DNA of 64,000 nucleotides, taken from contig OX597828.1 of NCBI GenBank assembly GCA_951406725.2, positions 51,956,001 to 52,020,000 of the forward strand, written 5' to 3'. This document shows positions 6,396 to 52,430 of this stretch, piece after piece. Under the pieces are notes generated by a model that saw nothing but the letters and a program-made list of their open reading frames with translations, had not been told where the DNA came from and did not search any database. The position numbers and the translations under genes are program-made. This stretch comes from Octopus vulgaris (taxonomy: Eukaryota). How positions within the stretch are numbered: position 1 is the stretch's first letter; the number at the start of each line of letters is the position of its first letter.

Positions 6396-6592
6396 ATGTA
6401 TGTATGTATGTATGTATGTATGTATGTATGTATGTATATATATATATATATATATATATATATATATATATATATATATATATATATATATATATATATA
6501 CATATATAATAAAAGGGTGAAATGACACTGAGTTGAGATGACGCATTCTAGTATCTCAAAATTTAATATACAATTATTCATAATTGTAGTAT

Positions 6593-6684
6593 CCTGCGCC
6601 GATGAGAGAAGAAGTCTGGGTAAAGTAGAATTTTCTAATTCTTATGCTATCCTAAAACTTGATCTCGAAACGTACGTCCGTAGG
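6593..6684 (+). ncRNA. Type I hammerhead ribozyme (core CCGAUGA, extended stem II, GUC site)
   Basis: Stem I cctgcg/cgtagg; core ccgatga 6599-6605; stem II gaga...tctc with a long internal hairpin; gaaa 6667-6670; palindromic stem III a-cgtacg-t; predicted cleavage after C6678. Confidence 0.8.
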
Positions 6685-7181
6685 TAACTTAAAATTGCAT
6701 GATCGATTGCCGTCATTTCATTCTTTCTTTCTTACCTGTCTGTGTTTGCCCTTTAAGTGCTGTGTTTTTACTGAGATCCCCCTTTTAGTAGAAGGAATAG
6801 CTATATCTCTTTGACTGCTATTTCTAAATTCGGTGTGTTGGTGAGGCAATTCGTTGCTAAACCCTTAATTACTTAGTATTACTTAAATTTTCCTCGAATG
6901 GGGCTTTTACATGCCGAAATCTACTTGGTGTAATTGATAATTATCCCTAATTAATTAATTTCACCCTTTTATTATTACTGATAACCATATTTTATCCCAG
7001 TAAATGACCACAGCATTTTGTCTTGGCTACACGCGGGTGGAAGGGGGCTGGTGACACAAACTTTCATTCAAACTTTGAATTTCGTGGTACTGGTCATGCT
7101 TTGGCTCGCTCTGACACTGAGTTGAGATGACGCATTCTAGTATCTCAAAATTTAATATACTATTATTCATAATTGTAGTAT

Positions 7182-7274
7182 CCTGCGCCGATGAGAGAAG
7201 AAGTCTGGGTAAAGTAGAATTTTTCTAATTCTTATGCTATCCTAAAACTTGATCTCGAAACGTACGTCCGTAGG
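7182..7274 (+). ncRNA. Type I hammerhead ribozyme, second tandem copy
   Basis: Same motif as 6593-6684; predicted cleavage after C7268, 590 nt downstream of the first site. Confidence 0.8.
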
Positions 7275-7712
7275 TAACTTAAAATTGCATGATCGATTGC
7301 CGTCATTTCATTCTTTCTTTCTTACCTGTCTGTGTTTGCCCTTTAAGTGCTGTGTTTTTACTGAGATCCCCCTTTTAGTAGAAGGAATGGCTATATCTCT
7401 TTGACTGCTATTTCTAAATTCGGTGTGTTTGTGAGGCAATTCGTTGCTAAACCCTTAATTACTTAGTATTACTTATATACATATATATATATATATAATT
7501 CATATAAAATATCGTGTACATTAAAACACATCAAGAGGCTTCCATCATAGGAAAACCTTGCGTTAGAAAGAACAGTTAAAAATGCATACCACTAATTATG
7601 GATCGCAAGAAAAGCGGAAAATACGTGAAAAGCCGATTTATATTTTCTCAATATCTATTTGAGGTAAACAATAAGCCTCACAAAGCGAGATATCATATTA
7701 ACACTCACAAAT

Positions 7713-7806
7713 GGCGTAGGATCGGCTGAGTGATAAGTAGCTTGCTTACCAACCATATGGTGTCAGGTTCAGTCCCACTGCGTGGCACGTTGCGCAAGTG
7801 TCATCT
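7713..7806 (+). mobile_element. SINE family C 5' fragment
   Basis: ggcgtaggatcggctg...ggttcagtcccactgcgtggcac matches the family C head. Confidence 0.75.
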
Positions 7807-7905
7807 GAATGTATTACATACACATAAAATGTAATACAATATAGCATGATATAAAATATAATATATGTGTGTGTATATACATGTGTGTGCATAAATATAT
7901 ATATA

Positions 7906-8310
7906 GGCGCAGGAGTGGCTGTGTGATAAATAGCTTGCTTATGAACTATATGTTTCCGGGTTCAGTCCCACTGCGTGGCATCTTGGGCAAATGTCTTCTA
8001 CTATAGCATCGGGCCGACCAAAGCCTTGTGAGTGGATTTGGTAGACGGAAACTGAAAGAAGCCTGTCGTATGTATATATATATATATATGTATGTGTGTG
8101 TGTGTTTGTGTGTATGTGTGTTTGTACCCCTAGCATTGCTTGACAACCGATGCTGGTGTCTTTACGTCCCCGTCACTTGTCGTTTCGGCAAAAAGAGACC
8201 GATAGAATAAGTACTGGGCTTACAAAGAATAAGTCCCGGGGTCGATTTGCTCGACTAAAGGCGGTGCTCCAGCATGGCCGCAGTCAAATGACTGAAACAA
8301 GTAAAAGTAA
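7906..8310 (+). mobile_element. tRNA-derived CORE-like SINE family C with internal (TA)/(TG) microsatellite
   Basis: Head ggcgcaggagtggctgtg, B box ggttcagtccc, core cttgggcaaatgtctt, internal microsatellite, tail ggcggtgctccagcatggccgcagtcaaatgactgaaacaagtaaaag. More than 10 copies or fragments in the window. Confidence 0.92.
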
Positions 8311-49064: not shown

Positions 49065-49424
49065 ATAGTCTATATTTATATTTATGTGTACTTATATTTA
49101 TTTTCTATTATACGTATTCTACTTATTGTATAACATTACTACTTTATGTACACTCCTTCATGTACACTGTTTTACCCTACATTATTATGTTTAACCTTAT
49201 GGTTTCTTATGTGGTGGTTTAATAAAGTATGTGATTGAGTATTATCTGGTAATTGATATTTGATTTCGATGTATTTCTCCATTTTCTTATTTTGTATATA
49301 TATATATATATGTATATATATATATATATATATATATATTTATACGTATATATATATATATATATATATATATATATAAGTATTTGTATATACGCACACA
49401 CAGATATATATATACATATATATA

Positions 49425-49640
49425 CAGTATGGCCCAAAAGTAGGTTTACAGTTATAACATAGGCACTTTAATTTTCATTAAAAACATTTTATTATAATTA
49501 AATTTCTATCTTACAATTAACTAAATTAGCATAGAATTATAGTTTCATATTATTTTTCATCATTAAGATCTAAACTGTTGACATATGAATGCGAAAGAGG
49601 TAGCTGAATAACTGCAAGGCTACTTTTACCACACCCCTTG
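49425..49640. mobile_element. Diverged Tc1/mariner-type MITE
   Basis: ta|cagtatggcccaaaagtaggtttacagtt versus aactgcaaggctacttttaccacacccc (partial TIR match). Confidence 0.45.
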
Positions 49641-49796
49641 CTATATATATATATATATATATATATATATATATATATATATATATATATATATATATAT
49701 ATATATATATATATACGCGTCAGTATGTATGTATGGGTGCGTTTTGAATGTTTTTGTATGTATGCGTTTTGTATGTATGTATGTATGTATGTATAT

Positions 49797-49988
49797 AGGG
49801 AGAATTCACGAAAAAAACAAAAGACGAAGACAGTGGTGTAGAAAACAAACATATGTATTAGTATAACGCTCAGGAATAGAAAAAAGTCTTTTACGTTTCG
49901 AGCCTACGCTCTTCTACAGAAAGGAACACAAAGAAACAAGGAGAGAAAAAAATGTGTGTAGAGGGTACCGATCTATCATGGTGACATG
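49797..49988 (-). mobile_element. Short Penelope-like element with A6U hammerhead variant (49888-49923)
   Basis: Minus strand: cttt ctgtaga a gagc-gtag-gctc gaaa cg ta aaag; second copy at 52250-52430. Confidence 0.75.
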
Positions 49989-51519
49989 ATATATATATAT
50001 ATATATATATATATATATATATATATATACGCGTCAGTATGTATGTATGGGTGCGTTTTGAATGTTTTTATGTTTGTCTCCCCGTCGCATATATCATCCC
50101 TTTCTCCCATTCATACAAGCTCACACACACACACACACACACAAACGTAGTCTCGCACGCTCTCATTCGCACATGTACACACACGCATAGACACGAACTT
50201 TCTCTCTCTCTCTCTCTCTCTCTCTCTCTCTCCCTTTCTCTCACTCTTCCTTTTTCTTCATTTCATGTTAGCATTCTCCGTTTATGCATATGCGTTTCTG
50301 TATGCTTCTGTATGTATTATGTATTTGCATGTGTGTTTGTGTGTGCGTGTGTGTGTGTGTGTGTGTGTGTTTGTTTGTGTGTGTGTGTGTGTGTGTATCT
50401 GTATGTGTATGACTCTGTGTGCGTGTGCGCACGTGTGTGTTGTGTCTGTATTTGCTTATGTGTCTGTGTGTGTATTTGTATTTGGTATGTGAGTCTGTTA
50501 CTATTATTTCTCTCCCGTACATACATACACTTACATACACACACTCACTCTCTCTCTCTCTCTCTCTCTCTCTCACACACACACATATACATACATACAA
50601 ATAGATTCCCACCACCACCACCACCACCACCACCACCACCATTTAAACGAATTCTTCAGAAACGATTCTGTATATAAAAAGGAGTGTGCTACAAGACATT
50701 TCTTGCTTATTTTCACAGCCACCTCACCGACTCACCTGCAACACACTTAAAACTGCCCCAAACTACTTTTCTCGAAATTGTAAACAAGAACGAAAAAAGA
50801 TTCTAATTAACAGGTTCTTATAACTATTACAATTGCCAGCCATAGTCGAAGAATTTGCTAGAATGTAAGTGTGCTGTGAAAGAACACACACACACACACA
50901 CACACGCACACACACACACACACATATATATATATATGTTTGAATGTGTGTATGTGTGTGTGTATGTGTATTTACTATTTTCTATATATTCACCCACGTG
51001 CTTTCACAAACCAACTTTCTTATCTATATATATATATATATATATAAAGACTCAAAGCGATATATATATATGTGTGTGTGTGTGTGTGTGTGTGTGTGTG
51101 TATGTATATATAATATATGTAATATATTACAACGTTCGAAGAGGGCAAGATTTTTTTTAGATTGAAATGATGGAGTTAAAAATTCAATTTCAGAATACCG
51201 AAATGAAGACGAAAGATTTGAAGATTTTAAAGAACAACGCGAAGAAATATTCTTCGCAAATACTGCACTGCTTGTCGTTATGCAAGTTATGTACATTTTC
51301 TTTCATTAACTAAGTTGCACTATGTCGAAGTGCAATATCCACAAACACACACACAAGAATTTATATGTATCTAATCAAAAATATTTTATATAAAACTTTA
51401 ATACATAGAGACAAACTCATACTCATACATTCATACATACGTAATTATATGGGAACATACGAGATATAGCTACAAAATTCCTACTGAACAAAAGAAACTA
51501 CGAAGCCCTTAAACTTCCC

Positions 51520-52085
51520 AAGATGCGACCAGTGATATCGATTATGTCACATTTCTGCTGAAAATACTTCACATGTGATAACCATCTGCCTCACCCCCAG
51601 ACTATTATTATGTATCTATTTTCCGATGTGGATACGATGTTGTCGTTGCTTGAATACTATACAATGCCATCCGTAGAAAAAGACAGCCCGAGGTGAAATT
51701 TCTGTTAGTGAATACATGCATACGTAAGGAATAGAGATATTGGTGGAATATTTCTATCAGAACATCCGCTAAATGCAAACATAACAGGCTTGGTATAATT
51801 GTTTCGGTTAGAAAAGAAAAAAAAGATCTATTGTTATTGAGGTCAGCTTCCCTGTAGACGTGAACATTTCATTCAAAGCCCGTGAGAGATTTACAACAAC
51901 TACTTCAAAACGGTGTCTGTACATAGATTATAAATTGACATTTATATCTAACAATAGCAAATGTTTATTAAAGGTCGAACTAGCAATCTCAAGGATCTGA
52001 CAGTTTTAGAAGAAAGTCACTGGCAAACCCAAAGTCAGTAAATACAATCTGTAAACGGAACAGTAAAACTATGCGATACTTTTCT
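51520..52085 (+). pseudogene. Degraded R4/Dong-like non-LTR retrotransposon, restriction-like endonuclease region
   Basis: RYWWNISIRTSAKCKHNRLGIIV and IVIEVSFPVDVNISFKARE correspond to the W.....HNRPDI and IEVS.P.D.N...K.EK REL motifs. Confidence 0.75.
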
Positions 52086-52249
52086 AAACATTTACATGTA
52101 ATTGTTCAACGTTGTTGTTATTAGATTCTGGCAATTCAATTCTTTCTATAAATAAAAGAGTTGATTTATTTTGTTGGAAATCAGTTATATATATATATAT
52201 ATATATATATATATATATATATATAGAGAGAGAGAGAGAGGGGGGGTAT

Positions 52250-52430
52250 GGGGAGAATTGACACAAAAAAAAACAAAAGACGAAGATAGTTGGTGTAGAC
52301 AACAAAGATGTATTAGTATAACGCTCGGGAAGTGAAAAAGTCTTTAACGTTTCGAGCCTACGCCTTCCACAGAAAGGAACACAGAAAGAAACAAGGAGAG
52401 AAAATAAAGAATGTGTAGTGGTTAGCGATA
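52250..52430 (-). mobile_element. Second copy of the A6U-hammerhead element (HHR 52342-52376)
   Basis: Minus strand: cttt ctgtgga a ggc-gtag-gctc gaaa cg tt aaag; next to (TA)n. Confidence 0.75.

Follow-up and report, generated by a model that had tools for sequence, protein, structure and literature searches.

A 64,000-nt stretch of the Octopus vulgaris genome (GCA_951406725.2, contig OX597828.1, positions 51,956,001 to 52,020,000 of the forward strand; hereafter, the window) holds about a dozen type I hammerhead ribozyme motifs, several of which depart from the canonical CUGANGA core. Are these departures accidents of single copies or traits of whole mobile-element families, and which elements carry them? 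We found that G3-C8, U3-A8, A6U and U4C are family-level majorities and not copy decay. The window is repeat-rich and gene-poor (GC 35%), in a host genome of 2.8 Gb.

The type I hammerhead layout was present at all 12 sites named in a first-pass annotation of the window. Stems I-III and the UH cleavage site are intact at seven of them (core position C3 at 6599+, 7188+, 9289-, 19876+, 20354-, 48954+ and 49919-), and the window copy has decayed at the other five (13909+, 21906+, 23308-, 48247- and 52372-). The sites fall into nine families (A to I, with B and I related), where at least seven had been proposed, and the listed self-complementary stem III palindromes and the C3-G8, G3-C8, U3-A8, U4C, U4A and A6U letters were all present in the window as described. 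A Watson-Crick 3-8 pair and G5 are kept in all 12 window copies and in all family majorities. G12 A13 A14, A15.1-U16.1 and H17 are kept in 11 of the 12 (the exception, at 21906, has C at 16.1); these letters were mostly preset in the genome patterns, and the genome counts do not gauge their genome-wide conservation. The majority cores of families C and D read CUGANGA, and those of A, B, E, G, H and I do not.

A relaxed scanner, with G5, GAAA and U16.1-H17 fixed and positions 3, 4, 6, 8 and 9 free, reported seven hammerheads in the window and none in the reversed window, and 60 block-wise dinucleotide shuffles of the window gave a mean of 0.83 (standard deviation 1.08, maximum 5). It also returned 12 matches, seven of them non-canonical, in 200 kb taken evenly from the genome, and one in the reversed control. 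Because the scanner filter was picked after the window had been viewed, more weight falls on the genome-wide counts, for which the reversed patterns gave 0. An Rfam search of the window had no hammerhead among the 150 of 216 matches listed, and two short stretches searched at E<=10 were without a hammerhead match.

Each family was searched across the genome with the seven core letters free and the flanks fixed. Match totals refer to the whole genome, core shares were tallied by eye on the first 100 matches listed in contig order, and exact-flank matching skews the counts toward younger copies; the reversed-pattern control was 0 for every family pattern. Family G had 4,389 matches with the family flank (82 with the flank of the decayed window copy), with a G3-C8 core in 93 of the 100 listed. 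All 100 have U17, which, to judge from PMC3884650, would avoid a competing G3-C17 pair. An exact-flank search for family G copies with G8 but without G3 gave four matches, none canonical. Family E (2,847 matches) has a U3-A8 core in 78 of the 100 listed, a canonical core in one and C3 with A8 in four. The A6U core marks 82 of the 100 listed copies of family I (7,966 matches; position 7 free), with U6 in 93, C6 in five and A6 in one; positions 3-6, 8 and 9 are fixed at 93-100%, and position 7, the known free position of the hammerhead core, is A in 45, G in 23, U in 19 and C in 13. Three unrelated families have a U4C majority (64-86 of the 100 listed): B (13,264 matches; 64, canonical 25), H (859 matches; 66, canonical 23) and A (329 matches; 86, canonical 11, many of those listed being neighbours in one array). 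Family D has 32 matches in total, of which 25 are canonical, and U4A, which had been put forward as a family variant, occurs once, in the window copy itself. Reversion of the family majority to the canonical core, the outcome that would have undone the first-pass annotation, was thus seen for U4A, whereas G3-C8, U3-A8, A6U and U4C hold. A looser pattern for the canonical minimal motif gave 13,496 matches, largely from families C and B, versus 24 in its control; about 25,000 variant cores in seven families are extrapolated from the listed shares. A G3-C8 core was also seen in loose ends of sequencing runs, possibly not independent of each other, labelled organisms A, D and, less cleanly, B. Four of 22 sequencing runs were examined for molecule ends and had none, an outcome without bearing on expression.

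The carriers are of two kinds. Two distant family G motif pairs pointed to a GIY-YIG frame upstream, and among the 30 best loci for the GIY-YIG protein piece, 26 have the family G motif 0.86-1.26 kb behind the end of the open reading frame (ORF), all 26 with G3-C8, and four have no motif within 1.5 kb. In 17 more diverged loci, the motif lies on the ORF strand in seven (five G3-C8 and two G3 with G8). The family G frames of 839 and 1,025 aa include reverse transcriptase (RT) motifs, a Cys linker and a GIY-YIG match above the cut-off. Many copies are 96% alike, indicating a young family. Two independent loci (L037 and L011) have the family I motif 0.7-0.9 kb 3' of the same GIY-YIG-like remnant; this remnant was recognised by its motif only, with no Pfam match. 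Families G and I are ends of Penelope-like elements that code for protein, with the 5' part lost, and most genomic copies are probably 5'-truncated by-products. The frames of G and of two further families, S and N (see below), have a CX2-5CxxC linker and, at the C-terminal end, a GIY-YIG domain, a feature of the Neptune or Nematis clade as defined in PMC8557442. Relatives of the protein of one of the elements are almost all unnamed, and the nearest named one is annotated Octopus vulgaris. For families B, C, E, F and H, no upstream ORF turned up in the loci examined, with no search aimed at it. A GIY-YIG piece upstream at L049 was not counted, as it belongs to another family and a microsatellite lies between; a Penelope remnant around family A at L012, considered as the parent, lies on the opposite strand and is the host of the insertion instead.

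Non-coding units repeated in tandem, 589 nt long in family A and ~492 nt in family D, make up the other kind of carrier; each has one type I hammerhead. Family A arrays run head-to-tail at 589-nt spacing, also with inverted junctions, and their copies are 98-99% alike; neighbouring family D copies are 491 and 494 nt apart. The units of both families form head-to-tail and inverted junctions and end beside TA repeats. Otherwise unlike, they share a 3' motif (window 6922-6965, 19642-19695 and 20135-20190). This motif lies near many insertion ends and may serve as a signal to the reverse transcriptase that mobilises the units. The proposed Penelope or retrozyme origin is supported, and the description of the carriers as non-coding elements is right for A and D and wrong for G and I. 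In one locus (L027:520-2620), copies of E, B, G and A and then a second B stand side by side in 2.1 kb with TA/CA repeats between them, an insertion pile-up.

Covariation is confined to positions 3 and 8. The majority 3-8 pair is C-G, G-C or U-A in every large family, and U4C, A6U and the A9C of family S have no compensating partner change, so that the idea of covarying cores stands for positions 3 and 8 and falls for U4C and A6U. From 219 distinct scan matches (against three in the reversed control), 13 clusters with at least two members were obtained, in which the commonest 3-8 state was C-G in nine, U-A in two, G-C in one and a two-member tie (C, A) in one; the clustered loci were chosen by family and are not a random sample. 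Family S (3,961 matches) is a sister of the family G element with 55% protein identity and a C3-G8 pair; its core is A9C in 86 of the 100 listed and canonical in six. The full element has the order pLTR-ORF-pLTR (pseudo-long terminal repeat, pLTR; L215 and L216), with an A9C hammerhead of non-palindromic stem III in both repeats and a 1,312-aa frame that is 99.9% alike in two copies. Stems I and II of S and G differ by paired changes, which places the 3-8 swap between related elements. Family N is a young element with many intact 781-aa open frames and a U3-A8 hammerhead (L087-L110 and L119-L122). The scanner found its motif in 12 of 30 GIY-YIG loci, and in three plus-strand full-length copies the motif is shortened and stem II has a G-U at its base. 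Tail remnants of family S also lie in the window (40443-40549 and 12889-13012). A dozen further families, whose hammerheads combine a canonical core with a long stem II and a palindromic stem III, were seen (L026, L041, L042, L064, L068, L089, L092, L111, L119, L165, L167, L174 and L180), along with two single U3-A8 motifs (L055 and L099).

The minimal motifs resemble the type I hammerheads of Penelope-like elements (Cervera and de la Pena 2014, PMC4209133) in the extra base after A9, G10.1-C11.1 and the palindromic loop-less stem III, which are present in family copies of B, C, E, G and I, as well as in their thousands of solo copies and the pLTR place behind an RT-GIY-YIG ORF. The same paper reports U3-A8 families in Schistosoma and others and low dimer activity for minimal Penelope motifs. 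Unlike the 56-motif alignment in its supplement, in which all cores are CUGANGA or U3 variants, the octopus families have G3-C8, A6U, A9C and U4C majorities. Families A and D are similar to animal non-LTR (long terminal repeat) retrozymes (PMC7229834; bioRxiv 10.64898/2026.07.22.740005), which likewise are low in GC and consist of non-coding units in tandem, each with one type I hammerhead; the A and D units are longer than the 150-450 nt of PMC7229834 and within the 51-972 nt of the bioRxiv report. They differ in the long stem II, the 8-nt palindromic stem III and, in A, the U4C majority. Natural U3-A8, U4C and slow A6C have been described (Perreault et al. 2011, PMC3088659) as rare cases, whereas in this genome the variants mark families of thousands of copies; G3-C8, A6U and A9C are absent from the core-variant section of that paper. 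The engineered C3G/G8C swap (PMC11167929, PMC9901934 and PMC3884650) has the same letters at positions 3 and 8 and is active or partly active in vitro, whereas the G3-C8 found here occurs in nature, as the fixed state of a young element that codes for protein. Earlier publications already cover Penelope hammerheads, U3-A8 and U4C. Natural G3-C8 and A6U were not found in a literature search, which returned engineered cases or unrelated papers, and natural A9C was not met in the literature covered, with no search aimed at it; this is weak evidence, as few subscription papers were covered and Lunse 2017 was not.

We give a probability of about 60% to the following reading: the motifs are type I hammerheads of Penelope terminal repeats and retrozyme-like units, their variant cores would have become fixed in whole replicating lineages, and cutting would be slow, assisted and dimeric, with selection keeping the 3-8 pair. 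The motifs are predicted to still self-cleave, slowly, as dimers. A palindromic stem III can form only between two molecules, and two neighbouring motifs may pair through it; dimers of families A and D are predicted to co-fold into a double hammerhead, and those of some others to form intermolecular stems I/III. The element's own protein probably helps cutting, and one Penelope hammerhead cut only with protein added and was partly rescued by C3G/G8C (PMC11167929). Selection would keep the Watson-Crick 3-8 pair and the stems and tolerate weakening at positions 4, 6 and 9, because uncut RNA would be the reverse transcription template and only occasional cutting would be needed. When all double mutants were scanned, no change in the CUGA region other than the G:C swap kept activity (PMC9901934).

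Several observations weigh against this reading. All other single changes in the CUGA region, which cover U4C and A6U, had low activity in the same scan. Since each family majority counts as one evolutionary event, about three events underlie the 3-8 covariation, and no flank similarity was detected among G, S and E that would indicate a common origin of E with G or S. There are 247 family G copies with G3 but not C8, and position 8 among the 100 listed is G in 47, U in 40 and A in 13. This excess of G3 with G8 extends over several loop variants and is more than simple decay suggests. For most of the minimal motifs (families B and I and the window copy of E), the lowest-energy predicted dimer is not a hammerhead dimer.

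It is conceivable, though on the whole unlikely, that uncompensated U4C, A6U and A9C are catalytically dead and that the fold serves as a protein-binding or dimerisation signal, or is a passenger of successful masters that no longer need cutting. The weak in vitro activity of such changes (PMC9901934) would fit, as would the dispensability of cleavage by that Penelope hammerhead for insertion in vitro (PMC11167929), the spread of Naiad elements without canonical hammerheads (PMC8557442), the recurrence of G3 with G8 in family G and the two nearly identical 1,312-aa ORF copies of the A9C element. Yet only position 7 is free in family I, the 3-8 pair is maintained in the family majorities, and natural U4C and A6C variants retain some activity (PMC3088659). 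Selection for slower cutting, by which lineages with weakened ribozymes would keep more full-length template and out-replicate their canonical sisters, strikes us as quite improbable. U4C did become the majority in three unrelated families despite creating a CpG, and divergence is lower among variant than among canonical copies in H (0.10 against 0.22), S (0.09 against 0.24) and B (0.17 against 0.23) in small samples of 7-13 copies per group on midpoint-rooted trees, with the C4 copies of H nested inside canonical ones. In family A, however, the canonical copies are less diverged (0.028 vs 0.043 for C4) and nested among C4 copies, which looks like reversion, and family C is large yet canonical. 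Position 4 appears to switch back and forth. Copy-specific decay of canonical motifs accounts for U4A at 19876 and for private changes at 13909, 21906, 23308, 48247 and 52372, but is refuted for G3-C8, U3-A8, A6U and U4C by the family majorities (64-93 of the 100 listed) and is hardly credible overall, with no canonical family G copy among the exact-flank matches. On balance, slow and assisted cutting is the probable explanation, favoured over both a fold that no longer cuts and selection for slower cutting. A-to-I editing, considered as a restorer of the canonical core, would not be able to revert C4, U6, C9 or G3-C8.

Table 1 Hammerhead motifs and their carriers in the window (positions are those of the window).
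Feature	Position	Strand	Description
Family A insertion	6504..7478	+	Retrozyme-like; 1.6 copies of non-coding 589-nt unit in tandem, flanked by TA repeats; short inverted piece at 5' end
Hammerhead A1	6593..6684	+	Core 6599-6605, U4C; stem II long, stem III an 8-nt palindrome; predicted cut 3' of 6678
Hammerhead A2	7182..7274	+	Like A1; predicted cut 3' of 7268
Family B minimal hammerhead	9259..9293	-	Core 9289-9283, canonical in window copy; family majority U4C
Family C minimal hammerhead	13906..13948	+	Canonical core; stems I and III decayed in window copy
Family D insertion	19612..20200	+	~492-nt non-coding unit and terminal repeat (1.2 units), retrozyme-like
Hammerhead D	19869..19946	+	7-bp stem I; U4A private to window copy
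Family E minimal hammerhead	20321..20357	-	Core 20354-20348, U3-A8
Family F hammerhead	21901..21956	+	Canonical core; decayed, C at 16.1 and imperfect stem III
Second family E copy	23275..23311	-	U3-A8; private A9G
Family G insertion	48121..48400	.	Truncated Penelope-like element 3' end and inverted copy of its tail
Family G minimal hammerhead	48201..48254	-	Core 48247-48241, swapped G3-C8
Family H hammerhead	48950..49064	+	Core 48954-48960, U4C; long stem II
Family I minimal hammerhead	49888..49923	-	Core 49919-49913, A6U
Second family I copy	52342..52376	-	A6U; one-base deletion in stem II

The window copy of family G has mismatches in stem I and outer stem II, and the family majority has a 7-bp stem I and a 5-bp stem II. 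No intact relative of family F was found among the genomic loci examined. The only notable protein remnants in the window are two of DDE transposases (37558-38325 and 57329-57703; DDE_3 and Transposase_1 matches). Two other repeats were seen: a 184-nt unit, tandem and dispersed and 86-95% alike (33333-34184, with relatives at 17354-17837, 30977-31257 and 42771-43094), and a ~210-nt dispersed repeat, 86-92% alike (7902-8125, 30338-30555, 35712-35936, 40026-40249 and 62284-62480).

The hammerhead is nearly universal in some clades of Penelope-like elements, yet its cutting is unneeded for insertion in vitro. Families numbering thousands of copies have fixed a natural G3-C8 swap or an uncompensated A6U or A9C and have canonical sisters alongside, which offers a way into the role of the ribozyme. 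Canonical and variant cores in sister lineages (U4/C4, A9/C9, A6/U6 and C3-G8/G3-C8), together with intact cognate ORFs, make this role directly testable. A natural G3-C8 needs two transversions by way of a mismatch that abolishes cutting in vitro, suggesting that for some time cleavage either was not needed or was buffered. The published search descriptor requires a strict cuganga (PMC4209133 supplement) and would overlook the ~25,000 extrapolated variant cores, in line with the earlier claim that strict CUGANGA searches miss the variants. We propose, tentatively and with considerable doubt, that the most successful Penelope-like lineages here have repeatedly rewired the core, by a natural G3-C8 swap and by U4C, A6U and A9C forms that would cut only with the element's protein, tuned down in favour of transposition. 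If this is true, censuses demanding CUGANGA miss a large part of animal hammerheads.

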